NCBI GenBank assembly: GCA_964344655.1
Contig: CAYFOF010000003.1
Span: 428-64,427, forward strand
Length of the DNA stretch: 64,000 bases
Source of the DNA: Candidatus Woesearchaeota archaeon
GTDB taxonomy: Archaea; Nanobdellota; Nanobdellia; SCGC-AAA011-G17; PNOQ01
Reading direction: 5' to 3'
The stretch's first letter is position 1, and every line of letters begins with the position of its first letter. Positions 1,233-27,603 of this stretch are shown here, piece by piece. Both the position numbers and the translations under genes were made by a program. Below the pieces are notes generated by a model. The model was given only the letters and a program-made list of their open reading frames with translations. It was not told where the DNA came from and ran no database searches.

Positions 1233-1279
1233 TGAAATGCTAATGTGTTTGTATTAATATAACTTATGATAATAAAGAA

Positions 1280-1354
1280 TGCTCCTGCCGGGATTTGAAC
1301 CCGGGTCTTCGGCGCGAAAGGCCGAAATGCTGGACCGGACTACACTACAGAAGC
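1280..1354 (-). tRNA. tRNA-Glu (anticodon UUC)
   Basis: On the reverse complement: 7-bp acceptor GCTTCTG/CAGGAGC with one GU, anticodon stem TCGGC/GCCGA with loop CTTTCGC (anticodon TTC), and T-arm CCGGG-TTCAAAT-CCCGG. Length 75 nt. Confidence 0.8.
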
Positions 1355-1402
1355 ATATTCATTTTGGGTAAATCTTTCCTTTTTAAATGTTTTGAAAAAG
1401 AG

Positions 1403-1516
1403 TGGGCCTGACCGGATTTGAACCGGCGACCTCTGGTGTTCCTAGCATGCTATTGGATTATATCCAATAACCGTCATATAAGACCAGTGCTATAAACCAG
1501 ACTAAGCTACAGGCCC
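1403..1516 (-). tRNA. Intron-containing tRNA (about 114 nt); anticodon tentatively UAU (Ile) with a roughly 38-nt intron after position 37
   Basis: On the reverse complement: acceptor GGGCCTG/CAGGCCC plus discriminator A, and T-arm GCCGG-TTCAAAT-CCGGT. Anticodon stem CTGGT ... ACCAG is split by an insert that contains an internal TTGGAT/ATCCAA hairpin. The exon loop reads CTTATA|intron|C. Confidence 0.6.
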
Positions 1517-6200: not shown

Positions 6201-6279
6201 AAACATAACAACCAGATATGAATAATAGTGAGGATAACAGAAATATTACTGCCGATATTTGAAACTTATGTTGGATCAC
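3205..6279 (-). CDS. Large (1024 aa) secreted/lipobox surface protein with a C-terminal right-handed parallel beta-helix (PbH1/NosD-like) repeat region and a T/P/K-rich stalk
   Basis: N-terminal signal with lipobox-like LFISGC. Repeated N/D/G-x-I/V turns (DNTIINE, FDNNKIVG, NFNEISNN, TFSNNKI) typical of beta-helix repeats. C-terminal low-complexity TPSTKTGESITKTEEPVTKKVP. Overlaps the upstream subtilisin gene by 14 nt, so likely an operon. Confidence 0.7.
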   Translation of the reverse strand: MIQHKFQISAVIFLLSSLLFISGCYVSPYYNMAEEEYIEYYILKDVSDSTSTNLDFSQGELTHFNAKTNLLGAVSEDSIYTFLHLIDPFTGSITAVGSMGVLPYDRTSHLFSKTYNPDGTIEYFRPFNDDFTFLDVESRIWGYDEDDNFDNIYKEQYFEGPLDLGQTYNANFFSQILYFTEPYLNNTLGGEYALTLKSVLYPTEVNYVIIQDLKDRSMYPVLKEYINGVQVSTDEFDEYHHEKYRNPGEEIGELFTLTSGDTYSFNLHMPSYDDVRNYTIEGETTISSSKDYEFPHIEFIESESYYNSNQDKILKFRIIENNLGSQAQLSLNTYYKTDGSWIEIQPTINYPEVEVNLGQISSESISFRVDISLGESSIYYTIEPIAIKQREISDLDFAISSEDCIIDPVSPISTKCVLDLSGTCTDNLGANCGKLPFYFYVDGAKIIPIRFTHQEIDKDFFTSGDHELKVVYEGIPESAYPAGFESNTITLNFDEPGILITGNYEDYPIDTDGDGLYDYLAIDSDVQVTEPGYYHLTSQIYLGERDEITHSSHSEPSSGIYLIPGTHTLTSLHPGSNIYRAGLDGPYELVSMCAREETSRIHCGNFPFVTSSYKYSDFQHENIVAEFTGDYDYLIEDLNDDGKYELLKWNAEVEIYEEGEYSLSGHLRTPGGDIIYSFFNDGKQTLKPGTHTLKETFRGKEIYNSLGTGQYELVSIELKRTDGAYSYETVANDFPNVFTEHISHTDFDQTYCSEYNSEIEEITTDTWVCPKKYYLDNGVKILADNIKFNCHDAEINGIQNGAGIDLTQRSGVTIYGCTIKEYIVGINMYLSNDNIIKDNTIINELIGIGTKHSHDNIFDNNKIVGKDNPLVGLSIYNANNNEFNFNEISNNQRGVDISHLATGNTFSNNKICLNEMDMKCSVPESTFGSANRATINDGCTQVQTIACKDEETLPEIRDFPETLEDPEGIENPTIPIRDEETTPSTKTGESITKTEEPVTKKVPKLSSEKSIWQRIVDYLFSESI

Positions 6280-8677
6280 TTTCTACCCCCTTTCTTTGGA
6301 AAAATACACCCATCTCATCATTAAAATCGGTGGGTTTTTTTGACACATATATTTTGTAACTTCCAGTTTTGGGATAACTAGAAGTAAATCTAGACCTAAC
6401 AAGATCTATTCCGTTTGAAAAATAATATCCTGATTCTTGATTCGAACTGAGATCTTTTCCATTTATTGATTTTCCTTCAACTATGAATTCTTTTGCATCT
6501 GCTATTCTTAAATTAAGTGTTTTGTCTTGATTTTCTTGGAGGTACACAGAATCATACAAAAAATATTCTGAATCTTGAGTTCCAAACATTGTTGCAGTAA
6601 TAAGATATTGTTGTTCTCCCTTGAAGGCACCCACCATTGATTCGTCCCTTCCAAGATAAGCATATTTTCTAGAAGATGCAAAATCAGAGTTATATACAAT
6701 AAAGGAAAAAATGGGATTAACTATATAGTCTTGTCTATCTTCTATATTTATTGTAACTTTGCTTAATTTTGTAATTGTGTAGGGTATTACATGGGGCTTT
6801 CCATTTTGTATAAGCTTTATTTTTCCAAAAAATATTCCAGACTTTCCAGTCGCATCTATGTTAAAATTTAATGTTTTTTCATTTTCTCCCCTTACGTATA
6901 ATGTTGAAACTTCTGGAGTCATTATATTGTGTTGTGTAGTAATCCCCTCTTTTATATCAAAAAATTCATTTGCTGGCTCTACTATAACATCCAGTACAAG
7001 AGTTTCTAATCCAAGATTGGAAATAACTATATTATCATTTCCCGTTGGGTTTCCGGCTTCTACATTCACAGATAATGAAGATTTGTCAGTAGAAAATTTT
7101 AAATCGTTTGTTCCTGATAAATTTAATTGACCAGATCCTTGGTAGAGTGTGTTTGGAGATCCTGTAGCGCCCGGAGCGCCAAAATCTAATTCTGTTGCAG
7201 AAAGAGTTATTGCAGTTTTGATTTGTTGAGGAGTCCAATCTGGATTAGCTTGTTTTATTAGAGCTGCTGCTCCTGCAACATGAGGAGTTGCCATACTAGT
7301 ACCAGAAATTGCTATATGATCCCCATCTTTACATGAATTAGAAGATTGATAGGTTCCATGTTGAGATGCACAAATTTCCACCCCTGGTGCAACTATGTCT
7401 GGTTTTGATATTGATTCTCCGATTACTATTGCTGGACCCTTTGAACTAAAAGCTGCAATTGGAAATTCTTCTCTACAATAAGGCAAATACTCTCCGGTCC
7501 AAGAGATTGATCCTCCTTGGTTATACGCTTTACATGAGGCACCCACCGTAATTGCAGTTCTTGCAATTCCAGGAGTTTTTATTTTTCCGTAATCCCATGA
7601 ATTTCCTGCAGCAATTGCTGCAGTCACGCCTATTTCTGTTGCTGCGTCTATTGCTTCAGCCATTGAATCATAATATCTTGTGCTTCCTCCCAAACTTAAA
7701 CTTATTACGTCTAAATGATCTGAAAAATCATCATCCCCATTTGGATCCATTGAGGCTTCAATTCCTGCGATAATGCTTGCTGCCGATCCGCCACCAGAAG
7801 AACTTAAAACTTTGTAAGCATAAATTGTTGCATCTGGAGCAACTCCCTTCAATCCTAATCCATAAGCATCTATTCCTGCAGCAGTGGCAGCGCAATGAGT
7901 TCCGTGTCCATGATCATCAATTGGATCAGGATCTTCATTAATGAAATCGTACCCTCCTTCAACCTTGCAACCACTTCCAAAACACCCTCCCAAATCTGAA
8001 TGAGTGTAATCTACTCCAGTGTCTAATATTCCAATTGTGGTTCCTTGGCCAGTATAACCTTGATTCCAAAATGCATCTGAAGAAATAATTCCTGTTGATT
8101 GATCCAATGATGCAGTTACTCCAGTATTTGGCATTATCCTTTTAATATTTGGATTTTTTTCTAATTCATTTAATTCTTCGTTTGTAAGTTTCTTTTCTAT
8201 TACAATACCATTAATTGCTTTATAAAATTCTTTTTTAACGACGATATTTTCATTGATTTTTTTTAAATCATCTTTTAGTTTTTTTTGTTCTTCTTTTATT
8301 GTTATTTTTTGTGCTTCTTTTGTTGCTTTGTTGTGGAATTTATACAATGGTTCAGACTTTAGTTCTATTATATGCCCTATAGAATATTCTATATCTATTG
8401 GTAATGAATTTATATCTGTGTTTTTGAATATTATGTCTCCCTTGTCCCCCATTGAGATTGTTATTAAATCTTCAATTCCCTCTAAACGGAAAGTGTAATC
8501 TCCGTAGTTGAAATCATATGATGCTAAAGTTAATTCTCCTGTTTCTCTATTTAATATTTCAAAATCGACAATTTTTGCATTGTCTTGAGTGATTGCTTTG
8601 GAAAATTGTGGTTCAAATTGTGTACAACCACTCAAAAACAGAACTGAAATTAGTATTAATATTACACCCCTTTTCAT
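6266..8677 (-). CDS. Subtilisin-like serine protease (peptidase S8), lipoprotein-type signal peptide, with a C-terminal extension
   Basis: Catalytic triad in canonical order: Asp in GILDTGVDYTH, His in HGHGTHCAATAAG, oxyanion Asn in AIAAGNS, Ser in GTSMATPHVAGAAALI. N-terminal MKRGVILILISVLFLSGC is a lipobox. Confidence 0.9.
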   Translation of the reverse strand: MKRGVILILISVLFLSGCTQFEPQFSKAITQDNAKIVDFEILNRETGELTLASYDFNYGDYTFRLEGIEDLITISMGDKGDIIFKNTDINSLPIDIEYSIGHIIELKSEPLYKFHNKATKEAQKITIKEEQKKLKDDLKKINENIVVKKEFYKAINGIVIEKKLTNEELNELEKNPNIKRIMPNTGVTASLDQSTGIISSDAFWNQGYTGQGTTIGILDTGVDYTHSDLGGCFGSGCKVEGGYDFINEDPDPIDDHGHGTHCAATAAGIDAYGLGLKGVAPDATIYAYKVLSSSGGGSAASIIAGIEASMDPNGDDDFSDHLDVISLSLGGSTRYYDSMAEAIDAATEIGVTAAIAAGNSWDYGKIKTPGIARTAITVGASCKAYNQGGSISWTGEYLPYCREEFPIAAFSSKGPAIVIGESISKPDIVAPGVEICASQHGTYQSSNSCKDGDHIAISGTSMATPHVAGAAALIKQANPDWTPQQIKTAITLSATELDFGAPGATGSPNTLYQGSGQLNLSGTNDLKFSTDKSSLSVNVEAGNPTGNDNIVISNLGLETLVLDVIVEPANEFFDIKEGITTQHNIMTPEVSTLYVRGENEKTLNFNIDATGKSGIFFGKIKLIQNGKPHVIPYTITKLSKVTINIEDRQDYIVNPIFSFIVYNSDFASSRKYAYLGRDESMVGAFKGEQQYLITATMFGTQDSEYFLYDSVYLQENQDKTLNLRIADAKEFIVEGKSINGKDLSSNQESGYYFSNGIDLVRSRFTSSYPKTGSYKIYVSKKPTDFNDEMGVFFQRKGVESDPT

Positions 8678-14931: not shown

Positions 14932-15387
14932 ATGTCTTCAAGAGTTATTGTTCCGTGGGCAAGAGCAGATTTGGTGAAAAAACCAGAGCTTGTATCCGCG
15001 TTTGTAAAAGGAGGTATTTCTATAGATTATATTAGTGATGCAAGAGACGCTGTTGAAACTTTAACTAAAGAAGAATATCCAATAATTATGGTTGATATGG
15101 TTCAGACTAGTTTACATGATATTGGGATGGAAGAAGATCTTCCTAGGTTATTTTGTGGAGCACATAATGAATCTTGGAAAGTTGGTTGTTATGTTTTAGA
15201 AAAAATTTTATCAAAAAAATCTAAAAATAAGGATAGTTTAGTTATAGTTACGGGCAAACACGATTTAGATTCTGAAGTTAATTTATTGGGAGTTAGAAAA
15301 TATATTGAAGAAGTGGGAGCACATAGTTATTACCATATGCAAGAAGGGGTTTCTGGTTTAGTTGAATTAGTGAAAAGATTGGTTTAA
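14932..15387 (+). CDS. Hypothetical protein (151 aa), possibly a divergent receiver-like fold
   Basis: ORF with good codon usage. PIIMVDM resembles the hydrophobic strand before the phospho-acceptor in receiver domains, but the canonical Asp pair is absent. Confidence 0.35.
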   Translation: MSSRVIVPWARADLVKKPELVSAFVKGGISIDYISDARDAVETLTKEEYPIIMVDMVQTSLHDIGMEEDLPRLFCGAHNESWKVGCYVLEKILSKKSKNKDSLVIVTGKHDLDSEVNLLGVRKYIEEVGAHSYYHMQEGVSGLVELVKRLV

Positions 15388-15487: not shown

Positions 15488-16282
15488 ATGACAGAAAAAT
15501 ATCGTTTATTGAGAGCAGAAAAAAGATTGCCAGAAATAAATTTACTTGTGGCCCCACAGGGTGGGAAAACCAAGATTTTTGGCATTTTTGGAAAAAAACC
15601 ATTTCAATTTAATCTTGAAGATATGGGTTATGATTGTTATGATCCAACACATTATGGGGGTGTTGCTTATTTTAATTCAGCCGAGTTTCCAAATTTGTTA
15701 TTTAGGGAACCGCAAACCCAAGAATCGATATCTGTTATGTCTAATTGTGTTGAAAACATAGAAGAGTTTCAATTTGTTGGAGATATGGTCCCATTACAGT
15801 TGGGTAGGATGGTGATAACATCGGATGGTGTTTTTACAAATACTTATGAAACAAATGAACAAAAACTTATTGAACTTTTAAAAAACGCGGAAAAAGTTAA
15901 TGGAATTTATTTAATTAATGGTGGAATGGCCTTTGCGCCTTATGAAAGTTTTAAAATGGGTGTCCAATCTGGAGAAGATTTTGTGCAAGGAGGACTTGCA
16001 AGAGCATTAGAGCACACCCTAGAAAAATCTGCAGACAGATTGGAGACTATTGCATCAGAAGAATTTTTTCCAGAAGGAGTGAATGTTTCAGGATTTAATG
16101 ATCGAAGAAGAAATGACTCTCAAAGAATTGTTTCATTTTATCCTCAGGATTTACGTGGAATCGAATATCATAATTGTTTTTTTGAAGATCCTAAACTTAG
16201 ACTGATTGTTAGCTGTCAACACCCAAATGATTCTGGTTATGGGTATCTATTTGGAGTTTCAACAAACGAAAAAGTAGAATAA
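15488..16282 (+). CDS. Hypothetical protein (264 aa)
   Basis: Long ORF with typical composition; no motif recognized. Confidence 0.45.
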   Translation: MTEKYRLLRAEKRLPEINLLVAPQGGKTKIFGIFGKKPFQFNLEDMGYDCYDPTHYGGVAYFNSAEFPNLLFREPQTQESISVMSNCVENIEEFQFVGDMVPLQLGRMVITSDGVFTNTYETNEQKLIELLKNAEKVNGIYLINGGMAFAPYESFKMGVQSGEDFVQGGLARALEHTLEKSADRLETIASEEFFPEGVNVSGFNDRRRNDSQRIVSFYPQDLRGIEYHNCFFEDPKLRLIVSCQHPNDSGYGYLFGVSTNEKVE

Positions 16283-16538: not shown

Positions 16539-19500
16539 TTATCTAAAAACTTCCATAAAAGTAGTTCCGCCAATTACAGCATGTGCTTGACTATTTGGAT
16601 GTAATCCGTCTCCATCGTATTCTGATTTTAAGTAACCATTTCCATCATCTAGTGGAGTGAATACATCTACTGCAAAATCAACATTATTATTTGTTAATAT
16701 CCAATTATTTATATCTTTAATTATTTTAACTGAATCACTTACGTCTTCACAGTTTTTACGCTCTTCGTACCATCTTCCTGCAGGAGTTAAGGTTAGAGCA
16801 ATTACTGTTTTTCCTTGAGCTTTTAGGTAAGAATATATTGTTTCTAATTTGTTTGCGTATGTTTCGTAATTTCCTTCACAAGGTATGTCATTTATTCCAG
16901 CAAATACTAAAACAGTGTCATAATTATTTAGGTTAAAGCTATCTACGGTTCCTCCCGCGCAATCTCTTGTTTGTTCTGATCCAAGAAGTCTTAATCTTAT
17001 ATTATCTATGCCACAACTAGAATATCCTCTATAATCTAAATTTATATTGTAGCTTTCTAAATTTGCTTTTAGGTGATTTGCATAACCTCCGTTGGCAGTT
17101 ATAGAATCTCCTATGGCCAAAACGTTTGTTATTTGTTTTGTGTTTTTGAAATTAGTAGTTGAAGTTCCGCAGGAAATAAATCCATAATATCTATCATTTA
17201 GTTTGTCTATGTTGTCGGTTGTTTTTGCAACAGTACATCCATAATTTGTATTTGTCGGATGGCAATTTGTATTCCAGCGATTTCCTCCTATTCTTTCAAT
17301 TTCTTCTACATTATTATTTGCATCTACAGAAACTCCTGTTACGACATCACAATGTCCTGATCTATCTGGGGTTAGTGTGTTATATGTGGTTGATCCAGAT
17401 TCAACTCTGCACAAAATGTCTCCAGGTTTTATATTGTTTATATTTGATATGTCATTTGTTTTACAACTATATTCATTTGGATTGTCTCTTAATTCTGTGA
17501 AATACACTGAATGTTTTCCACTTACTGGGAAATCTGAAACTCCGGCATTTTTCATAACGTAAGAAATAAATGCTCCAGACCATGGAGTATCTTCGCAATC
17601 CCAATTTGTTGTTGATGTTGTACTGAAATAAGATTGTAATTTATTTTGCATGTCGCATTCTTTTCTAGCTCCCTCTCCCCATGCAGAATATTCTGCTTTG
17701 GCAACGTCGACAATATCATTTTTACTTTCTAATTGTGTTGTGATAATATTTCTTGATGCAAAGCCGAATTTAGATTTTAAAACATTATATTTTTCCATTA
17801 CTCCTTCAACGTAATTTGGATGGTGCCCGCAAGTATATCCAGCGTATCCTCTTACTGCGGCCTCCCAACCATTGTAGGTTGTTGTGGGACCATCACATGT
17901 TTTTTGGAAACTCATTCCATTCTCTCTTTCACCCCAATAACGATAAGCATTACTTAAAACATAGACTCCACATTGAACATTTGCTTTGGTATTTGTTTTT
18001 AATCCGTCAACAGAGCTAGCCCCAGATACTCTTCCATCGGAACAAGCATCGTCAAATCCTGTTCCTGTAATTTGCATTAAACCTCTGGCTCCAGTGTTGG
18101 ATGTTGCACTTTGATCACACCCACTTTCGTGCATCATAATTGCTAAAACTAATAGAGGATCAATATCTTTTTCTTCTGAGTATTGATCTATGTATTGAGC
18201 GTATAACTGGCAATTGTTTCCACAATCGCATCTTCTGTCACCAATTACATTTTCTTTCGCATATTGTATTGCTCCGTAAACATCTCCTGTTCCAGTGACT
18301 GTTGTGGTTCCTCTAGAATCACATTTTGTGGCTTGAGTTTGTATCCATGAGATTATTTTATTGAAATCATTTAGTTCTGTTGTTTTTTCAAATTTTATTC
18401 CGTTTTCACATTTCATTTCAAGTTCATTTATGTTTGTATTGCTATCTACGTATGCCCTTAGAACAGTTTCAAATCCTTCCCACCAATAATATTTTTTACT
18501 TATTCCACCTTTTTTTTCTACGTAAAACCCATTCCAGTGAATTGTTTTATCGTTATCAAATATTAATAAATCGTTTCCTGCTCGTTTTATATCTAGTTCA
18601 AATGGTTGCATCCCGTTTTCTACTCTTTCATAAATTGCATAATATAACCATTCAGCTAATCTGGAAGGAGAAATACCATTTACTACGTTTTGACCATTAA
18701 ATGTATCATATTTATTTTTATCTCCTGTTTTATGTTCAATTATTACTTTATTCCAGTTGTTCATATTTTCCCTAATTACTTGGGCTATCCCATAGGATGC
18801 AGGGGAAAGAGAAATTTCTTCAAAATCTGGGGAGAATACTACTTCTTCATAATCTTCCCATTCTTGATTTGGTCTTTTTAGAGATAATTCTCCGTCATTT
18901 ACCCTAAATTGTGTGTTTGATGAAGTTGGTTCAACTTTTATTTCAATTTCTTTATCTGTTAATTCCGAATATGCTAATTGATCTCTTATTTCTGAAGTTG
19001 CTCTACTATCTTCTTGTCCGCAAAACTCTAATATGTCTAGTATATTTGCCCCACCAGATTCAAATTTGGATTTTCTATTATCTCCTTTGTGTACGGTAAT
19101 ATGATCATCATCCTTTCCTGGAGGGTTGTTTACAGTTTCTACTATTTCTTTTACTCCGCCAGAAAAATCTTTTCCAACTAAACCTTCACAAACGTCAGAA
19201 AGAATTGTTGCGTATTTTGAATTTTTTATTAAATTACAATCTTCATTTTGATATATTTTTATCCATTCTTCATTGTTTGTTGGACCTTCTAATTTGTATT
19301 CCCACGTTCCAAATAAATATCTGAATGAGGCTCTATCGCTATTACTATTTGAATCATCAGCGTCGTAAAATATAGAACATTGAGCAGATTGTTCATCAAG
19401 TTTTCTTTGGGCTTCTTGTTGGGTTTCTTCTATTTTTTTGTATCCTGCCAGGGTTATTAGATGTTCTGCTGCTAATGAATGTGATTTTTCTATCACTTCA

Positions 19501-22500
19501 AAATCTCTTGCTCTGTCAATTAAATCATATAATTTTCCTATAAATTCTATTTTTGTTTGACGATCTCTTGGATCTATTCCTAGTGATTCGAATGCAAGGG
19601 ATTGGTATTCTTCTTCTGAATTATCATCTAATGTTTGTTGTATTTCGTTTCTTCTTTCTTGTTCTTGTGCTGGAGTATATTCATTATTTCTTTGAGCTTC
19701 TGCGATTACTTCTGATAAATTATATGAAGTATCATGTAATGATTGTTTTATTCCAGCAGAATAAAGATAGCAATTTCCTAGCTCTCTTCCTAAATCATCT
19801 TGTCCACAAGTTCCTACAAATTCCCATTCATCTCCCACACCATCGGGGTCGTATGCTGCACAAACTCTTTTTACTCCAGAAGTAAATAATCCAGGAACAT
19901 AACTTCTTTCTCTTGGAACACATTGTTCTGCAGTTTGGATATTATCGTTTAATGTTGATTTTATTAATTCATCTTTTAGATATTGAGTTGAGAATCCACT
20001 TGATGTACTTCCGAATCCACATTCTTGAATACCATCTATGATTATACACATTTCTACAAATCCTGGAGGTAAATTTGGAAGTGTGAAACTTTGATCTACA
20101 CTTTCTCCTCTTCTTAGGATTCTATCTCCTTGGAATAATCCAGGATCGTTAACTGTGATTGTTTGTCCGTTTATGTCTTTCAAAACTACTTTATACCTTA
20201 TGTCTTTATTTCTTCCAGCGTATATGTGATAGTAAATTCTGTATGTTGATTGCCCGGTTCCTATTGTAGCTTGAGTGTTTATGAAACCAGATTGTAAATT
20301 TACTTCTGAAGATCTATCTTCTTCAAACCATCCTGTGAATTGCGGTGGACTCTCTGGTGATGTTAATTGACCCAGTAGATCTCCTCCTGCGGGGGTTCTT
20401 CCGAATATTGCTTGTTTACAAAGTGTGCTTCCTACTTCGCTGGAGGTTCTTCCTCTGAATGCTGAGAATGCTGAAGATGCATAACTCTTTGTGAAAAAGT
20501 TTACAGAATCTCCAAGTCTACTCCAACTAGATTCCCATAATTTATATTCTCCTCCGCCGGATGAACCAAATACTGCTGTTGAGATGAAACTTTGTATCTT
20601 TCCAAAGACATTTACTAATGCTAAAGCTTCTTCCCATAAAATATTACACATGTATAAACTTCTTATTTCATTACAGATTCCTACAGATTCCCCACTTGTT
20701 TTGGCTACTTCTAGACAATCTCTGAAACTACCAAACATAGAATAGATGTTTTCTAATCCTGCATGTATTCCAGTTAAACAAATTGGAAGAATATCTCCAT
20801 TGCCCCATCCTAGTGTGATTGAACCAATGATTCCTTTTTGTACTACAGATCCTGCATCTCCCCCAAGATCCCATCTCCCTCCAAGATTAAATCTTGATGG
20901 CGGACACATTACAGGATCACAAACATTGTATAAAATTTTACAATCTGTAGAAGACATTGAATCTTCACATTGTCCATTTGGATCTAATCTTGATCCTATA
21001 TTTCCTTCGTATTGTTCAATTAATATGTCTTGACCGTTGAATTTTACTATTGATCCCTTGTCTTTTGTAGCTAGTGGAACTGCTTGTTGATATGTTCTTT
21101 CTATTTCATAAGCTAACCTATCATTTTCTTTTAATCTTGTATCTGGATGTAATTGTGTTGAGGACATTACTAGTTTATCATCTTCTGTGTCTGGAATTCC
21201 GTCTGAGCCAATATTCCATACTGAAAATCTATATCCTCCTCTTCTTTCTGCATTTTCATCTACTTGTATGTAGTTTGCAAAACTTAGTGATTCTTCTCCA
21301 CCATTATATTGGAATGGGATTAATGTTGGAGTGTTAGTTTCATCGTCGAAGTAAATTCTTGGAACTGTTGTATATTGAGTTAAGAAAGATCCTTCTGAAA
21401 GTCCGGCAAGGTAAATGTTTCCGTTTGCTTCATAAAAGTCTCCTCTGGTACTTGAAAGGATTTCACTTCCATCCATTATTGGGGTTACAGTTATTTTATT
21501 TCCTTCCGTATCTATTATGTATTTGTTATCTCCATCTGTGTAAAGCGGGAATGGGTTATTGTTTGGTCTGGAGATTATATCTCTTCCTTGAAGTGTTTGT
21601 TGTGCACGAGTGTCTTGATCTGTGAAGAATGCATTTGAAGGAGTTGTTAAAGAACCAGTTCCAACACTTAATCTGTATCTTAATTCAATTTCTTTTATTT
21701 CTTTATCAGAAAGTTCTTGATCTCCTATTTCTTCTCTTATTGATCGATCAATTTTATTTACTTTTTGTAGTTGTTCGTCAAAGTCTAAACTGCCGTCTTG
21801 CCAAACTTCTTCATCATACATTGATTCGTATAATTCTTGACCTGAAAGATCTCCGTATTTGTGTAATAATGTTAAGTTTGTTACATCCATGTTTAATCTT
21901 GTAGCTATTCCTTGTAAAGATTCTTCATCTTCAAAATCTACATCTTTGAATAATTCATCTAATTCGTTTTTTGTTCTTTGAGAAATTTCTACTCTTTCTT
22001 CTATTTCATTTTTAGCATCGTTGAAACAATTTATTGAGGCTTGAGTGTTAGTCCCGTGTACACTTTCACAGTCTTCTCTTACTCTATTTTCAATTAATCT
22101 TTTTGCAGGATTTGAAAAGAAAGCATTTTTTATTGTTAGTGCAGCAAATGTTGCATAACAAACTCCTTTCCAGGTTGAAATTATACTTCCTAGTCTATTT
22201 ATTATTCCGTCTAGTCTAGAAAGTGTTCTATCTGTTGAGGCAATCATCTTATCAATTTCTTCAGGAGTCCATTGCCATAATCTTTTTTCTATTGGCAAGT
22301 GAATTGTAAATTGAGAAGTTCCATAATTATCTCTTGTTCCTGGAGTTACAGTTATTATTGCACTTTCAACTACATCTATTTTATCTATGTAAATGAATCT
22401 AGATTGAGTACCGAAAGGAACTTGAGTTTTTTTGCCTATTTCTAATGTTCTTGTATTTGCTTCTGGTCTGTTTCTTGAATTTAATTCTGTGAATTCTTGT

Positions 22501-24017
22501 TGGATCACAACTTCATTTGAGCTTATTGAAGTTATTGCCCATCTATATTTATTTCCTGACTCGTCAATTATCTCTGGAGAAATGTATTCTCCGATTGTTC
22601 CTTCATCAAAATCGAAATTTATTATGCTATCATCAAAACTGTTTAATACAGCATAATTTACTTTACTTTGTTCTGCATCATCATCAATTGATATTAAAGT
22701 TATTAACATATCATCTGCTTTGACATAATTGTATTTGTTTTGTAATCTTAATTGAGAATTATCTAATCTTTCTTGATATTTTTCTTGCAATGAAGGATCT
22801 GCTTGTATTGCATTTAGTAAGAAAAGATTTGCTTTTTCTATTGAATTAAGACCTTCGTAAGCCTCAGAAATTTTTACATAGTATTCTGCTTCTTCTGTTG
22901 AAGTTTCTGCTAGTTGTAATGCAGATCTGTAATCTTCAATTGCTTGACAGTATAACTGAGTTGAAGAAGCAGCGCTTAATTGTTCACTTGGTAGATATCT
23001 GAAATTTGCACACGGATCTGAAATTTCACTTCCCTCTTCATATGCTATGAATAATTCATTTCCATCTGTGTCAACTATTATTAATCCGTCAGAAAATATT
23101 TCTTTTACAACCCATTCACTGTTTAATTTCATTCCAGCAACATAATCTTTTGTTGATGAAACAATTTCTTCTCCTAAATCTTCTTCAATTAGTAACCTTG
23201 CTTTGTTTTCGTTTTTACTTACTCTTTCTAGTTTTAGATTAATTCTACTTTCCAGTAAACTTGGAGCCCCTGGGAGTGTAACTTCTTTTGGTTCTCCTCC
23301 AGCTGTTAATTTAACTTGATTAGCAAATCCTATTTTTCTTTTATTTCCGTCGTATAATTGTACTCTTGCGGTGTTTCCATTTATTTCTATAACTCTTATG
23401 TACCCTCTTCCGCCCCATAAAGCACTATCTTTTAGTTCTTTGTTTAGCCATGCTTCTTCATCCTTTTGAGGAGCGAGATTGAAACTTTGTGTACTTAAAA
23501 CTCCAAATCCAGATTCAACATCAAAATAAATTCTTGCATCAACTTCAATTGTTATTTCTTCAGGAACTTTTTCTTCTAGTGGTTGACGTTTTAGTCTTAC
23601 AGTTGTGTATCCTAGATCTATGTTTCCATTTGCATCAACTACTAATTCTTCTCCTTTTGGTCTTACTAGAGAAGTTAATCCTCCTTGAATGTATTTACTT
23701 GATTCTCGGTTTGGGATTAAATCTATATGTTTAATTTTCATATCTCCGTAAAATGGAGCCCCCGCAGGAGATTGAGAATCACCGAATAATGCAGTGCCTA
23801 AAGTTTTACCAGAAAGAAATACGTGAACATTTGCTGCTCTGTGTTGGAATAAATCAGAAGTTATTGGAGTTGGGCTTACGTGATCTACGTTTATTGTAAG
23901 TGCTTCTCCTAAGTCTCTTGTGTCTCCTTCTATTGGATCGTTGTAATATCCAAAGGAAGTTACTGGAGTACTAACTATTAAAATTATACAAATTATTGCG
24001 TATATTGCTTTATTCAT
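16539..24017 (-). CDS. Giant secreted protein (2492 aa): about 1900 aa N-terminal region of unknown function followed by lytic transglycosylase (SLT), CHAP-like Cys/His peptidase and SGNH/GDSL hydrolase domains
   Basis: Signal peptide MNKAIYAIICIILIVSTPVTSFG. SLT motif AIMMHESGCDQ...GARGLMQIT (coding around 17.9-18.25 kb). CHAP-like Cys region WSGAFISYVMKNAGV and His region SGHCDVVTGV (around 17.3-17.6 kb). SGNH block I AIGDSITANGG and block V DGLHPN (16.54-17.14 kb). The start codon overlaps the stop of the upstream gene (ATGA). Confidence 0.85.
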   Translation of the reverse strand: MNKAIYAIICIILIVSTPVTSFGYYNDPIEGDTRDLGEALTINVDHVSPTPITSDLFQHRAANVHVFLSGKTLGTALFGDSQSPAGAPFYGDMKIKHIDLIPNRESSKYIQGGLTSLVRPKGEELVVDANGNIDLGYTTVRLKRQPLEEKVPEEITIEVDARIYFDVESGFGVLSTQSFNLAPQKDEEAWLNKELKDSALWGGRGYIRVIEINGNTARVQLYDGNKRKIGFANQVKLTAGGEPKEVTLPGAPSLLESRINLKLERVSKNENKARLLIEEDLGEEIVSSTKDYVAGMKLNSEWVVKEIFSDGLIIVDTDGNELFIAYEEGSEISDPCANFRYLPSEQLSAASSTQLYCQAIEDYRSALQLAETSTEEAEYYVKISEAYEGLNSIEKANLFLLNAIQADPSLQEKYQERLDNSQLRLQNKYNYVKADDMLITLISIDDDAEQSKVNYAVLNSFDDSIINFDFDEGTIGEYISPEIIDESGNKYRWAITSISSNEVVIQQEFTELNSRNRPEANTRTLEIGKKTQVPFGTQSRFIYIDKIDVVESAIITVTPGTRDNYGTSQFTIHLPIEKRLWQWTPEEIDKMIASTDRTLSRLDGIINRLGSIISTWKGVCYATFAALTIKNAFFSNPAKRLIENRVREDCESVHGTNTQASINCFNDAKNEIEERVEISQRTKNELDELFKDVDFEDEESLQGIATRLNMDVTNLTLLHKYGDLSGQELYESMYDEEVWQDGSLDFDEQLQKVNKIDRSIREEIGDQELSDKEIKEIELRYRLSVGTGSLTTPSNAFFTDQDTRAQQTLQGRDIISRPNNNPFPLYTDGDNKYIIDTEGNKITVTPIMDGSEILSSTRGDFYEANGNIYLAGLSEGSFLTQYTTVPRIYFDDETNTPTLIPFQYNGGEESLSFANYIQVDENAERRGGYRFSVWNIGSDGIPDTEDDKLVMSSTQLHPDTRLKENDRLAYEIERTYQQAVPLATKDKGSIVKFNGQDILIEQYEGNIGSRLDPNGQCEDSMSSTDCKILYNVCDPVMCPPSRFNLGGRWDLGGDAGSVVQKGIIGSITLGWGNGDILPICLTGIHAGLENIYSMFGSFRDCLEVAKTSGESVGICNEIRSLYMCNILWEEALALVNVFGKIQSFISTAVFGSSGGGEYKLWESSWSRLGDSVNFFTKSYASSAFSAFRGRTSSEVGSTLCKQAIFGRTPAGGDLLGQLTSPESPPQFTGWFEEDRSSEVNLQSGFINTQATIGTGQSTYRIYYHIYAGRNKDIRYKVVLKDINGQTITVNDPGLFQGDRILRRGESVDQSFTLPNLPPGFVEMCIIIDGIQECGFGSTSSGFSTQYLKDELIKSTLNDNIQTAEQCVPRERSYVPGLFTSGVKRVCAAYDPDGVGDEWEFVGTCGQDDLGRELGNCYLYSAGIKQSLHDTSYNLSEVIAEAQRNNEYTPAQEQERRNEIQQTLDDNSEEEYQSLAFESLGIDPRDRQTKIEFIGKLYDLIDRARDFEVIEKSHSLAAEHLITLAGYKKIEETQQEAQRKLDEQSAQCSIFYDADDSNSNSDRASFRYLFGTWEYKLEGPTNNEEWIKIYQNEDCNLIKNSKYATILSDVCEGLVGKDFSGGVKEIVETVNNPPGKDDDHITVHKGDNRKSKFESGGANILDILEFCGQEDSRATSEIRDQLAYSELTDKEIEIKVEPTSSNTQFRVNDGELSLKRPNQEWEDYEEVVFSPDFEEISLSPASYGIAQVIRENMNNWNKVIIEHKTGDKNKYDTFNGQNVVNGISPSRLAEWLYYAIYERVENGMQPFELDIKRAGNDLLIFDNDKTIHWNGFYVEKKGGISKKYYWWEGFETVLRAYVDSNTNINELEMKCENGIKFEKTTELNDFNKIISWIQTQATKCDSRGTTTVTGTGDVYGAIQYAKENVIGDRRCDCGNNCQLYAQYIDQYSEEKDIDPLLVLAIMMHESGCDQSATSNTGARGLMQITGTGFDDACSDGRVSGASSVDGLKTNTKANVQCGVYVLSNAYRYWGERENGMSFQKTCDGPTTTYNGWEAAVRGYAGYTCGHHPNYVEGVMEKYNVLKSKFGFASRNIITTQLESKNDIVDVAKAEYSAWGEGARKECDMQNKLQSYFSTTSTTNWDCEDTPWSGAFISYVMKNAGVSDFPVSGKHSVYFTELRDNPNEYSCKTNDISNINNIKPGDILCRVESGSTTYNTLTPDRSGHCDVVTGVSVDANNNVEEIERIGGNRWNTNCHPTNTNYGCTVAKTTDNIDKLNDRYYGFISCGTSTTNFKNTKQITNVLAIGDSITANGGYANHLKANLESYNINLDYRGYSSCGIDNIRLRLLGSEQTRDCAGGTVDSFNLNNYDTVLVFAGINDIPCEGNYETYANKLETIYSYLKAQGKTVIALTLTPAGRWYEERKNCEDVSDSVKIIKDINNWILTNNNVDFAVDVFTPLDDGNGYLKSEYDGDGLHPNSQAHAVIGGTTFMEVFR

Positions 24018-25987
24018 TGTACTTCTGGGTATATGAAATTTTGATTATTTGCATTTGCATTCATGTTATTGAAAACATCTAACATTTCTGATTGTGTTCT
24101 TGGAGTTTTATCATATGGGACGTAAACTGTTAGTTTATTTCTATTGAAAACATCAGCATACCATTCGTATGCAGCTCCGCCGACAATAACATCCGTTAGT
24201 GTTCCTCCATCAAATTCGGATTCAAAACATTTTTCTTCACTTGAGAATAATCCAAGTATTCCTGGACGTGGAACTTTTACACAACTTATTTCTGAATCGG
24301 ATTTAAGTTCTATGTTTGTATTTTCTTCAGTTAGTAAGTATGAAGTTACTTGGTAGTTTCCGTCGGTTAATTTTATTTCAGTGTCTTCATTTGTTACCAT
24401 AGTTATGTATCCATTATCTAGGTTTTCAAATTGTACTACCGCTTGTTTGTCATTTACGGAACTAGTGAATCCATCTCCAAGTTGAACTTCTTTTATTTCT
24501 AATTCTAGAGTGTAGTGTTTGTCTAGTAGAACTGTAGTTTCTTGATCTATGTTTGTTGAAATAAATTCTCCGCCAAGCTCATAGCCATCTTTTTGTGCAA
24601 TTATTGCACCGTTTAAACATGGAGGGAAGTTTGCATTTATTTTTCCTTGTTCATTTGTTTCTCCAATATAACAAGTAGATGTGAAACATTTGTATAGTAT
24701 ACTTGTATCTTCAATATCTCTGAATGTTTTGCTGTCATAAACTGTTACTTCCATTGGTTTTACTTTGTTTTCACAGAAATTATCTGTAAATTCATTTGAA
24801 TATTCTGTGTTGAATACTTCTCCCTCATATGCTCTTGGATTGTTGTTATCTATGATTACTGTTGTTGCGTATTGGAAAGTTAATCCAGTATTGTCGTCGG
24901 TTAATCCAATTAATACTGGGTATTTTACGTCGTAAACAAAATGGTAATTGTTTAAACAGAAAAATAAGTTTAGGAATTTACTTATCTCTGGAGTTTGTTG
25001 TGTTAGAGCATCTCCTACTAAAATTTCTCCTTTTGTTGGTGAGACATCCATAAACATTGGGAAGTCGGTTGAATAGGTGAATGATTCAGTTATATATTCG
25101 GGTTTTGTTATGTCTATTTCAAAATAATCTCTATTTGTTGGAAGATATGCAGATGAAGTTGGGTCTTTTAAGGTTAGGGCAGCTATGTTTGTGTTTGTTA
25201 TTGATTTAAGATCTTCTAGAACTCTTGATTTTTGCCAAACTTTTCTTTCACATGAAAACTCTGTTGTTGAATATGGAATTTCTTCGTATGTTGCCATTAG
25301 ATCAATTGTTTTTTCTTCTAGGAATAATTCTTCATTTTCTTTTTCCATAACTTCTTTTGCAAGATTGTATAGTTCTCCTAATTTTGAATCTGCTATTACC
25401 ATTAGTTTATCTATATCAGTATAAACTTCTTTTAGTGAAATTTGTAAATCAGAATTTAATTTTACTTGAACATTGTTTTGGTTTATTTTTACTTCTGAAG
25501 ATAATATTTCTGGATAGTTTATTGTGAATCCATCTTCTTCAAAACTTTGAGCAAAATATTCGCAGTTGTTGAAATTATTGTTTATGTATTCTTCAAGTTC
25601 TCTTTCCATTTCTTCTATAGTTGGAATTTGTTGTTGTTGGATTCCATTTGAGGTTTCATAAAACCAATATGCAACTTCATGGATTGAGTAAAGATTTAAT
25701 GTATTTGAGAATTCATCATTTATTGTTCTTTTGTAAGGTTCTTCTGGAAGGTTTATGTATCCTCCTTGAGAAGCTAAAATGTTTATTCCATCTTGAGTTA
25801 TTCCTTCTAAACATACATCAAAATAGTCTTTTGCGGGTCTTATTTGTTCTGGAATTATTATAGAATTCATCTCTGATTCAAAATCTTGTTCTAATATTTG
25901 AGATCTGAAGGAAAATAGTATTGTAAATACTGCTAAAATGACAATTCCTAGAATTATAAATACAGTAACTTGACCCCTCTTTTTCAT
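24014..25987 (-). CDS. Hypothetical 657-aa protein with an archaeal class III (type IV prepilin-like) signal peptide
   Basis: N-terminal MKKRGQVTVFIILGIVILAVFTILF: basic residues, Gly, then a 20-residue hydrophobic helix is typical of archaeal prepilin/archaellin signal peptides processed after the KRG. The rest is rich in T/N/E/Y with no motif recognized. The stop overlaps the start of the giant gene. Confidence 0.65.
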   Translation of the reverse strand: MKKRGQVTVFIILGIVILAVFTILFSFRSQILEQDFESEMNSIIIPEQIRPAKDYFDVCLEGITQDGINILASQGGYINLPEEPYKRTINDEFSNTLNLYSIHEVAYWFYETSNGIQQQQIPTIEEMERELEEYINNNFNNCEYFAQSFEEDGFTINYPEILSSEVKINQNNVQVKLNSDLQISLKEVYTDIDKLMVIADSKLGELYNLAKEVMEKENEELFLEEKTIDLMATYEEIPYSTTEFSCERKVWQKSRVLEDLKSITNTNIAALTLKDPTSSAYLPTNRDYFEIDITKPEYITESFTYSTDFPMFMDVSPTKGEILVGDALTQQTPEISKFLNLFFCLNNYHFVYDVKYPVLIGLTDDNTGLTFQYATTVIIDNNNPRAYEGEVFNTEYSNEFTDNFCENKVKPMEVTVYDSKTFRDIEDTSILYKCFTSTCYIGETNEQGKINANFPPCLNGAIIAQKDGYELGGEFISTNIDQETTVLLDKHYTLELEIKEVQLGDGFTSSVNDKQAVVQFENLDNGYITMVTNEDTEIKLTDGNYQVTSYLLTEENTNIELKSDSEISCVKVPRPGILGLFSSEEKCFESEFDGGTLTDVIVGGAAYEWYADVFNRNKLTVYVPYDKTPRTQSEMLDVFNNMNANANNQNFIYPEVQ

Positions 25988-26049: not shown

Positions 26050-27603
26050 TTATTTTCTCCATCTTCCTTTAATGATTGGAAGTGCTTGAACTAATCCTCC
26101 TTCATATAGTACCCCATTGCCCGCCATTGAAGTTGAAGGTTGTCCTAATTGATAATCTAAAGGTATTAATGAACTTGTTCCAACAGACATTGATCCTTTG
26201 CTTACTTCTAGTTGATGAACGTGCCCCATAATGACTTTTCCATAGGCTTCTATTAAACTTTTTAGTGAGCCTCTTCCGCCATTTTTTCCTTTGTGACCAT
26301 GGGCACCACATTGATATCCCCAATACATTGCGTCTTCACCAAGTCTTAGGAATCTTAGATTATTTGGGATTTTATTTTCAAAAAGTTTTCTTATTGCTAC
26401 TTCAAGTGCATTATCTTTAACAGAATTAAAAGATTCAGCCCCCAATATTCTGTGTGCCATTTTTCTATTTTGTGGATCACTTCTATAAGCTCCTTTTGCT
26501 AACCAACGATATAACATATCGTCATGATTGGAGTAGTTAACGATTACTTCACCTTTTCCTGCTCTTTTTGCTTTCTCTATTAGATATTCTCCAGTTTCAT
26601 AAAGCTCTTCTTCAAGACTTCTAACTCTTCTTTCATGTTTGTCTGTTTGTGCAACTTCGTCATCTAGTTCATGAAGATTTATTGATTGAGCACTGAATGC
26701 GTCGTGAATGTGTATGTGTTCTGGAGCAAAATAATCTATCATTTCGTTGTTTGCTTCATCTGTTTCTGGATCTAATTCAGAAACGTGGGAATCTCCAAGA
26801 ACTAAAGCAACTGTTTTTGCTTTGTGGGGTTTTACTCCTTTTGCGTACTTTATTCCTAAATCTATAAATGTTCCATTTGCTTGAGCAGGAACTATTCTTG
26901 GAAGGTATAATTTTTCATCTAAAACATCAACAACTACAAATCCAAATTCATGCTCTTCATCAGCATCATATCCCCTTCTATTTGTAGTGTTATAACTTGG
27001 ATGAGTGCAACATCCTGTCGTTAACATTAATTTTGGGTATTCTCCAGATTGTCCTTTTGCTACAGGAGTTAATACTTGTTTTGGGCTTGGCATAACAATT
27101 GAACTTCCGCCGTGTTTTTTTGTATATTTTCCTTTCCCAGTTAAAGGATTTTGATTTTGAGAGGGTTCTGGAACCGCTATTAGTCGTACATTTGTATTTA
27201 ATCTTTCTCCCGTTGTTTCATAATTAGTATTTGGCATTTCATTCCAAAAAAAATGCATTGGCATTTTTGGAGATCTTCCTTTTTCTCTCCAATTATCTCT
27301 CTTTTCTTGTTCTCTTTCTTTTTGCATTTCTAATCTGCCTTTTGCATTACTTTCCATATATACATCATCTCTTTTGTGGAAAAATGGATGTAATTCAATT
27401 TCATTAACGTAAGATCCGGGAATTGCACAAATTCTTAATTCCCCTTCGTTATCTCGAACATATCTTTCTAAATTTTTTATAAGTGGTAAATTTGGAGCAC
27501 CTTTAGAAGAATCTCTTCCATAGTGTTCAGCAGAATGAGGATTTTGAATGCCTTGCGCAGCAGTTATAGCAATAGTTTTAGTTTTAGAATTATCACCCTC
27601 CAT
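26050..27603 (-). CDS. Two-domain protein: N-terminal region of unknown function plus C-terminal calcineurin-like metallophosphoesterase domain
   Basis: Phosphoesterase motifs LGDSHV (GDxH), HIHDAF, YSNHDD (GNHD/E-like) and GHVHQ (GHxH) in residues about 260-470. 517 aa. Confidence 0.7.
   Translation of the reverse strand: MEGDNSKTKTIAITAAQGIQNPHSAEHYGRDSSKGAPNLPLIKNLERYVRDNEGELRICAIPGSYVNEIELHPFFHKRDDVYMESNAKGRLEMQKEREQEKRDNWREKGRSPKMPMHFFWNEMPNTNYETTGERLNTNVRLIAVPEPSQNQNPLTGKGKYTKKHGGSSIVMPSPKQVLTPVAKGQSGEYPKLMLTTGCCTHPSYNTTNRRGYDADEEHEFGFVVVDVLDEKLYLPRIVPAQANGTFIDLGIKYAKGVKPHKAKTVALVLGDSHVSELDPETDEANNEMIDYFAPEHIHIHDAFSAQSINLHELDDEVAQTDKHERRVRSLEEELYETGEYLIEKAKRAGKGEVIVNYSNHDDMLYRWLAKGAYRSDPQNRKMAHRILGAESFNSVKDNALEVAIRKLFENKIPNNLRFLRLGEDAMYWGYQCGAHGHKGKNGGRGSLKSLIEAYGKVIMGHVHQLEVSKGSMSVGTSSLIPLDYQLGQPSTSMAGNGVLYEGGLVQALPIIKGRWRK

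Follow-up and report, generated by a model that had tools for sequence, protein, structure and literature searches.

A giant protein of a Woesearchaeota archaeon with a C-terminal set of putatively murein-directed enzyme domains

Giant extracellular proteins resembling murein lytic transglycosylases are known from Woesearchaeota and Pacearchaeota, where they form the family fam00969 (Castelle 2021, PMC8204110). The passages of that paper dealing with the family propose that these proteins bind or degrade bacterial walls and that the archaea are perhaps episymbionts of bacteria, and they cite earlier sightings (Rinke 2013, and Castelle 2015 for the AR20 gene). "Large lytic murein transglycosylase" genes were also reported from five metagenome-assembled genomes (MAGs) of Woesearchaeota, in a passage that argues for predation (Vigneron 2022, PMC9723730). 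More generally, about 5% of archaeal genomes encode peptidoglycan hydrolases, with Nanoarchaeota prominent among them, and haloarchaeal enzymes of this type were shown to kill (Strock 2025, PMC12352652, which also cites the published giant SLT proteins). In the present study a gene encoding a giant protein of 2492 residues was analysed in a stretch of 64,000 nucleotides from a Candidatus Woesearchaeota archaeon (assembly GCA_964344655.1, contig CAYFOF010000003.1, positions 428 to 64,427); this whole stretch is referred to as the window.

The window giant appears to be a member of the published family, as it fits the description in size, lineage and SLT domain and its relatives include AR20. 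It shares with the published giants the size class (2000–3000 residues), the N-terminal export signal, the SLT/GH23 domain and the proposed role against bacterial walls, and it adds DUF2272 and SGNH domains after the SLT domain. An earlier sequence-only reading of the window, which took the protein for an enzyme aimed at bacterial murein, therefore overrated the novelty of that idea, since these giants had already been interpreted in this way (PMC8204110, PMC9723730). The trunk, the partner gene, the swapping of cassettes and the modules other than SLT are not described in the passages on the giants in those two papers. Hence, the protein belongs to a known family, but has an unusually complete domain set and is placed here in a new comparative context: a core conserved up to about residue 1450 followed by a swapped cassette, the pairing of SGNH with a 3D domain, a partner gene with a 4-bp overlap, and a neighbouring gene resembling A1 of phage T5.

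Several other described systems share parts of this layout. An SGNH esterase acting with a family-1 lytic transglycosylase, for which de-O-acetylation is a prerequisite, is known as the LtgA-Ape1 pair of Neisseria and Campylobacter (PMC7083599, PMC6174289), but in the window the domains are fused in a single archaeal polypeptide that is presumably directed against the wall of another organism, no solved Ape1 was matched by sequence, and the function is one that we infer. The archaeal hydrolases of Strock (PMC12352652) have the same archaeal origin and the same bacterial murein as target; they are small modular haloarchaeal proteins with demonstrated activity, whereas the window giant, at about 280 kDa, possesses a large trunk and is known from its sequence. 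A conserved N-terminal trunk carrying a recombining C-terminal enzyme cassette is also the layout of polymorphic toxins (CdiA, Rhs, MAF, and Tae/Tse of the type VI secretion system). In contrast to these, the giant has a trunk without homology, its cassettes consist of wall hydrolases and not of nucleases or pore-forming domains, and no same-strand immunity gene follows it, which would not be needed if the producer lacks murein. Multi-domain lysins such as LysGH15, LysK and PlyGRCS, and conjugation hydrolases of the TraG and PrgK types, combine an SLT or lysozyme domain with a CHAP or NlpC/P60 domain. They resemble the giant in having a glycan-cleaving and a papain-fold peptidoglycan domain in tandem for local breaching of a wall; unlike the phage lysins, the giant has a Ser at the nucleophile position, a non-viral trunk of 1900 residues, and a vertically inherited gene on an archaeal chromosome.

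The giant gene and its three enzyme domains

The giant gene has an intact open reading frame (ORF), which is the largest in the window. The GC content is even across the window (about 0.28–0.35) and the gene forms no compositional island relative to its flanks. The following parts could be distinguished.

16539..24017, minus strand: giant gene, 2492 residues
23943..24017, minus strand: N-terminal hydrophobic segment, residues 1–25, predicted Sec-type signal peptide or signal anchor
20988..23942, minus strand: conserved N-terminal and middle trunk, residues 26–1010, 59–91% identity to the closest relatives
19758..20987, minus strand: most conserved core and family signature, residues 1011–1420, Cys-rich, with motifs CDPVMCP and YHIYAG
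18243..19757, minus strand: variable linker, residues 1421–1925, with the probable swap breakpoint at about residues 1450–1500
17763..18242, minus strand: GH23/SLT domain with an N-terminal CxCGxxC extension, residues 1926–2085, catalytic Glu1964 followed by GLMQ
17169..17726, minus strand: DUF2272 domain, residues 2098–2283, predicted papain-like fold of the CHAP/NlpC-P60 type, four cysteines invariant
16572..17123, minus strand: SGNH/GDSL esterase domain of the carbohydrate O-acetylesterase type, residues 2299–2482, with S2305, N2376, D2470 and H2473

The first of the three enzyme domains is assigned to the lytic transglycosylases. The Pfam model SLT (PF01464) matches residues 1942–2035 (E 2.5e-11, 43.6 bits against a cut-off of 21.3), and HESGC (residues 1963–1967) with its catalytic Glu and GLMQIT (residues 1979–1984) are both present, in agreement with the sequence-only reading. 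The domain can be aligned to MltC, MltF and Slt70, with Glu1964 (HES) falling on the E-S motif (IES/TES/QES) of MltC and MltF, and the NCBIfam matches on the giant, all of them partial, are to MltC, MltF and Slt-type murein transglycosylases. The family profile aligns end to end not only with family-1 lytic transglycosylases, but also with goose-type (g-type) lysozymes. The residue after GLMQI is T and not D in the window protein, at a position which we take to be that of Asp97 in goose lysozyme; this hints at a lytic transglycosylase rather than a hydrolase. Residue conservation in this and the following two domains was evaluated with per-domain alignments (A5, A6 and A7).

The middle domain had been read as a CHAP/NlpC-like Cys/His peptidase, of which the fold stands and the cysteine catalysis does not. 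Its motifs are located at residues 2145–2154 (PWSGAFISYV) and 2220–2229 (SGHCDVVTGV) as had been proposed. It is recognised by the Pfam model DUF2272 (PF10030; residues 2138–2250, E 6e-16, 59.3 bits against a cut-off of 27), while the CHAP (PF05257) and NLPC_P60 (PF00877) models do not match it even at E ≤ 1, TIGR02594 matches marginally (E 0.096), and a profile of the domain matched no sequence in the PDB. An AlphaFold2 model based on 29 sequences is confident (predicted local distance difference test, pLDDT, 90.5) and has an alpha+beta, papain-like fold of the CHAP/NlpC type, with CHAP endolysins as the best structural matches and Tse1 and Tae3 among the structural neighbours. Ser2147 (model residue 63) opens the core helix, at the site of the nucleophilic Cys in CHAP/NlpC folds, and is invariant in 29 of the 29 sequences of alignment A5. 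Equally invariant in these sequences are His2222 (GHCD) and Asn2246 (GGN), which lie on model strands E137-147 and E153-163, as well as the motifs WS[AG]AF and HCD. Ser2147 was assigned from its position in the secondary structure, from motif analogy, and from a survey of papain-like proteins in which DUF2272 is one of the few families where a conserved Ser replaces the Cys, their activity being plausible but unproven and speculative (PMC10318531). Since the nucleophile position is Ser, the label of a Cys/His CHAP peptidase was dropped, and we propose a Ser/His(/Asn) active site in a domain with a predicted papain fold. The motif analogy pairs WSAAFI with DCSGFV. A profile comparison (hhalign) of the DUF2272 alignment A5 with the NlpC-like tails of three sister giants (A9) gave a probability of 2%.

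The C-terminal domain is matched by Lipase_GDSL_2 (PF13472; residues 2301–2480, E 3.1e-13, 51.1 bits against a cut-off of 32.9). Both motifs from which it had been recognised as an SGNH esterase, GDSIT (residues 2303–2307) and DGLHPN (residues 2470–2475), are in place, and blocks I (G2303-D-S2305), III (G2374-x-N2376) and V (D2470-x-x-H2473) are intact and invariant in the subfamily; the Gly of block II was placed by eye in RGYSSCG, in a column that is not invariant in alignment A7. Its nearest relatives of solved structure are the SGNH proteins 9KR0/9KQZ and the FjoAcXE-like acetyl-xylan esterases 7TOG-7TOJ, which are carbohydrate O-acetylesterases (PMC9105624). At E ≤ 0.1, the PDB entries matched by its profile comprised acetyl-xylan esterases, acylhydrolases and a sialate O-acetylesterase.

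Members of this SGNH subfamily are fused to murein hydrolases in seven independent architectures. Fusions among the relatives include SLT+SGNH (one of them in a named member of the Patescibacteria, of the candidate phyla radiation, CPR), NlpC/P60+SGNH and DUF2272+SGNH+M15; DUF2272+SGNH+M15_4 is the C-terminal end of a contig-truncated Woesearchaeota protein (P0068). Two sister giants from Nanoarchaeota MAGs (L040 and L037) have a 3D domain (PF06725, MltA-type), Cys-rich repeats and an SGNH domain in their C-terminal 420–620 residues or so. On the same trunk, therefore, the SGNH domain is independently paired with a transglycosylase-type domain that is not homologous to SLT. O-acetylation at C6 of N-acetylmuramic acid (MurNAc) blocks lytic transglycosylases and lysozymes, as SLT/GH23 chemistry requires MurNAc with a free C6-OH (PMC6174289). 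Ape1-type SGNH esterases lift this block (PMC6174289, PMC7083599), and Neisseria couples its transglycosylase LtgA with the SGNH esterase Ape1 (PMC7083599). Because of this block, of the LtgA-Ape1 precedent and of the recurrent pairing of SGNH with transglycosylases, the domain context supports a role of the SGNH domain in de-O-acetylation of murein; the argument is one of context, not of homology to Ape1. The idea of a trio that includes a de-O-acetylation step is thereby strengthened, both by the repeated pairing with murein hydrolases and by the O-acetylesterase relatives.

Trunk, exchangeable cassette and partner gene

The N-terminal hydrophobic segment is the strongest hydropathy peak of the giant (Kyte-Doolittle value 2.22), followed by a weaker internal peak at residues 1131–1150 (1.45), and has an equivalent in all eight aligned homologues. 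This single strong N-terminal segment, together with many invariant cysteines, suggests that the protein is exported, and it is probably associated with the cell surface. To residues 1–1900 Pfam assigns no family, and only weak, sub-threshold TPR matches were found. The trunk between residues 26 and 1010 contains beta-rich regions, a TPR-like stretch at about residues 345–415, and the motif PIEKRLWQWTPEEID at residues 575–589. In the core, the Cys-rich part is followed by a predicted beta-sandwich at about residues 1226–1336.

Word-index homology searches recovered only 8, 1 and 6 proteins, and it was an exhaustive HMMER search and a genome scan that showed the family to be large. Full-length homologues are 36–64% identical to the window protein. 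A search by similarity to the C-terminus yielded 44 giants, of which 31 have SLT only, seven have SLT+DUF2272 and four have DUF2272 only; among them, the combination SLT+DUF2272+SGNH is restricted to the window giant. Further modules in family members are SLT+YkuD, SLT+DUF1615, an internal M23 domain and 3D+SGNH, and one protein (P0090) has SLT+M15_4, with M15_4 just under the Pfam cut-off (23.7 versus 25 bits). In eight loci (L016, L021, L024, L038, L043, L048 from AR20, L052 and L059) the SLT domain is not C-terminal, but lies about 2–2.7 kb upstream of the core, and the enzyme modules therefore appear to have been inserted at differing positions of the trunk. One archaeal giant of 2960 residues (P0019) has a YkuD L,D-transpeptidase domain at residues 2735–2939, after the SLT domain. 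YkuD domains normally build or remodel murein cross-links.

The trunk and the C-terminal part have different histories. Up to about residue 1450 the two closest relatives are 60–92% identical to the window giant, and beyond it 14–34%; for P0002 and P0003 the identity is 82–92% over residues 1001–1400, decreases to 54–60% over residues 1401–1500 and then to 18–34%. The cassette of P0004, a more distant relative, is closer to that of the window giant (35–44%). This drop in identity and the incongruence of P0004 indicate recombinational exchange of the last 1000 or so residues, and the comparison indicates that this part of the protein is a swapped cassette (SLT, DUF2272, SGNH, M23, YkuD, probably M15, and 3D) on a trunk of about 1450 residues.

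The scan for core relatives used one genome per prokaryotic species and the most conserved 420 residues of the trunk as query, and at least 539 relatives were confirmed. The best 80 of these are all from Woesearchaeota, Nanoarchaeota or records named only "archaeon", including the complete AR20 genome (L048). The same query found no relatives in 2.9 million viral contigs of IMG/VR. Metagenomes were also scanned: a single-protein query gave no match, and the proteins retrieved with the SGNH alignment were for the most part generic members of the SGNH type, near which neither SLT nor DUF2272 nor the core occurred.

The window itself is archaeal, as the sequence-only reading had concluded from informational genes. 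It encodes S8e, TFB, Kae1 and an ATP-dependent DNA ligase and has ORFs for LSm and L37e, the named homologues of the giant are from Candidatus Woesearchaeota and Pacearchaeota, and one of the tRNA genes is presumably of the intron-containing archaeal type. This tRNA gene, the partner gene and the other genes considered below are as follows.

1403..1516, minus strand: tRNA gene, presumably intron-containing and archaeal, 114 nucleotides, 59.2 bits in Rfam, missed by ARAGORN, adjoining tRNA-Glu at 1279..1355
24014..25987, minus strand: partner gene, 657 residues, stop codon overlapping the giant start by 4 bp
26050..27603, minus strand: phage T5 A1-like metallophosphoesterase, 517 residues, 62 bp upstream of the partner gene on the same strand
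15488..16282, plus strand: downstream ORF converging on the giant gene, 264 residues, no Pfam or PHROG family
3205..6279 and 6266..8677, both minus strand: tandem genes for a NosD/right-handed beta-helix protein (1024 residues) and a subtilase with I9 propeptide (803 residues)

The gene order LSm, L37e, tRNA-Val(GAC), a gene for about 656 residues and the giant is kept in loci L001-L003 and L004, of which the giants are 36–39% identical to that of the window, and the order LSm, L37e, tRNA-Val, partner and giant also in the closest relative, L007 (64%). In all loci compared, the partner overlaps the giant start by 4 bp. Even the most divergent giant (P0008, 26% identity) is preceded by a fragment of a 31%-identical partner that ends 4 bp into the giant gene. 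With its positional counterparts in L001, L004 and L007 the partner shares 55–86% identity, which exceeds the conservation of the giant. Its N-terminus, MKKRGQVTxFIxxGIVIL, is invariant in four orthologues and points to a conserved N-terminal anchor, and many cysteines are invariant too. The sequence MKKRGQ followed by VTVFIILGIVIL resembles the [KR]G-x-hydrophobic pattern of archaeal class III (type IV pilin) signals, but Class_IIIsignal was not matched in a Pfam scan at E ≤ 10, and the partner as a whole has no match in Pfam or PHROG. On the evidence of synteny and of the scans with the core, giant and partner are a vertically inherited chromosomal gene pair and not part of a provirus.

The A1-like gene lies just downstream of tRNA-Val and is absent from the locus in L001 and L004, while in L007 it is found at the same position with 85% identity, compared to 64% for the giant. 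It matches phrog_1745 ("DNA transfer protein", E 9.7e-73), and tblastn matches were found in 1123 phage records at about 28–31% identity. The gene may be co-transcribed with the partner and giant genes. The encoded protein looks cytoplasmic, and we have here a gene of the phage host-takeover type in an archaeon that is apparently equipped against bacteria.

On the other side of the giant, the 264-residue ORF has no counterpart in the L007 locus, where the next gene (151 residues, 14932..15387) is 67% identical, and it is an extra gene beside the swapped cassette. An immunity gene in the style of polymorphic toxins was considered for this ORF and is not supported, in view of its opposite strand, its absence from the L007 locus and its lack of a family. 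The NosD-type protein and the subtilase could belong to the same extracellular degradative repertoire as the giant.

Proposed function and alternative explanations

We propose, with a probability of roughly 0.55, that a surface trunk in complex with the partner presents a murein-dismantling cassette to a contacting bacterium, either host or prey. The conserved trunk of about 1450 residues, made together with the translationally coupled partner of 657 residues, would carry the exchangeable C-terminal cassette. The SGNH esterase would then strip O-acetyl groups from C6 of MurNAc, the GH23/SLT domain (Glu1964) would cut the glycan between MurNAc and N-acetylglucosamine (GlcNAc), and the DUF2272 domain with its predicted CHAP fold (Ser2147/His2222) would cut or bind the stem peptide, so that the sacculus of the attached bacterial cell would be opened locally. 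The substrate of each domain and this order of action are, like the export of the protein, our inference, and the purpose may be attachment, penetration or predation. The sequence-only reading saw in the trio a set of murein-directed enzymes that belong together, in an archaeon and not for housekeeping wall remodelling; this view is supported by the three Pfam domains, by their catalytic residues and by the murein-type companion modules in other family members.

Several observations weigh against our proposal. Of the 80 loci, one per species, 57 showed neither SLT nor DUF2272 nor SGNH within 3 kb of the core; their enzymes may be located outside the flanks that were retrieved, they may have other or more diverged modules, or the trunks may carry none, and murein hydrolysis may be an accessory rather than the defining function of the family. 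Moreover, Ser instead of Cys as the nucleophile of DUF2272 makes peptidase activity uncertain. None of the PDB entries found with the SGNH profile (E ≤ 0.1) is named Ape1, OatA or PatB, and the substrate of this domain could be another acetylated glycan. Finally, structure prediction of the trunk reached a pLDDT of 54.7, with a generic beta-sandwich as the only confident part.

The same features can be explained differently. The giant could be a diffusible bacteriolysin or scavenging exoenzyme that acts independently of contact, to kill competing bacteria or to obtain amino sugars and amino acids from murein debris. Killing of bacteria at a distance is documented for secreted peptidoglycan hydrolases of archaea (PMC12352652), the passages on metabolism in PMC9723730 predict Woesearchaeota to be recyclers of cell material, and the giant has an N-terminal hydrophobic segment only, without a recognisable C-terminal anchor. 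We nevertheless consider this unlikely, as a non-enzymatic trunk of 1450 residues and an obligatorily co-encoded, membrane-anchored partner of 657 residues are hard to explain in a free enzyme, which at about 280 kDa would be costly for a very small genome. Those archaeal peptidoglycan hydrolases that have been characterised are small and modular. Alternatively, the enzyme modules could serve mainly as adhesins, the cassette holding the archaeon on murein or a different glycan without hydrolysing it to any great extent. This would fit the Ser nucleophile of DUF2272, the existence of catalytically dead, peptidoglycan-binding relatives of NlpC/P60 such as DUF1175 (PMC10318531), and the "attachment to bacterial cell walls" put forward in the passages by Castelle on the giants (PMC8204110). 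It is an improbable explanation in view of the intact and invariant SLT Glu and full SGNH set (Ser-Gly-Asn-Asp/His), and the invariance of Ser, His and Asn of DUF2272 in 29 sequences likewise suggests selection for catalysis.

The target could also be an archaeal polymer in the envelope of the producer or of an archaeal host, for example pseudomurein, a glycan of the S-layer or another acetylated polysaccharide. Among the proteins of solved structure, those closest to the SGNH domain act on xylan and not on murein, and family GH23 includes chitinases as well. However, formation of the 1,6-anhydro product of lytic transglycosylases needs a C6-OH on the −1 sugar, which the N-acetyltalosaminuronic acid of pseudomurein lacks, and the companion modules M23, YkuD, 3D, NlpC/P60 and M15 (in P0068, and below the cut-off in P0090) all belong to murein-specific families. 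The known hosts of DPANN archaea are themselves archaea, and an association of Woesearchaeota with methanogens has been proposed (PMC5994134, as cited in a passage of PMC9723730), but lineages that make pseudomurein have almost no peptidoglycan hydrolases (Strock, PMC12352652), and we regard an archaeal target as very improbable. A virion-associated lysin or tape-measure-like protein of an integrated virus or mobile element, an option that the sequence-only reading had kept, would account for the PHROG matches of the enzyme domains ("lytic tail protein", "transglycosylase", "lipase"), for a weak TMP_3 match in one homologue and a tape-measure protein that matches the SLT profile, and for the phage T5 A1-like gene just upstream, beside a tRNA gene. 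This option retains next to no probability, and a provirus or virus-borne gene was rejected: the slot between tRNA-Val, L37e and LSm and the cellular genes is the same in genomes with giants down to 36–39% identity, the core has at least 539 matches in archaeal genomes and none in IMG/VR, the GC content equals that of the flanks, and there is no adjacent gene for a capsid, terminase or integrase.

A more far-reaching suggestion can be made, which we consider doubtful at present: the giant, the membrane-anchored partner and, in this lineage, the A1-like phosphoesterase might together represent an undescribed archaeal apparatus for breaching bacterial envelopes on contact. Murein-enzyme "warhead" cassettes, recombining in the manner of polymorphic toxins, would then allow Woesearchaeota and Pacearchaeota to open bacterial hosts and extract their contents. 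The compact enzyme set of about 570 residues has clear candidate catalytic residues, i.e. E1964 (SLT), S2147 and H2222 (DUF2272), and S2305 and H2473 (SGNH). If the enzymes are active, they would provide new lysins, including a CHAP-fold enzyme with a serine nucleophile, of which we know no biochemically characterised example. The swapping of cassettes, the association of SGNH with two unrelated transglycosylase-type domains and the obligatory partner may also offer a route to a catalogue of the bacterial wall chemistries that these archaea can attack. To our knowledge, no host is known for any Woesearchaeote or Pacearchaeote, and the genomic case for some DPANN archaea living on bacteria, and not on other archaea, rests mainly on these giants. 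The apparatus, if real, would be the first molecular handle on episymbiosis or predation of archaea on bacteria.

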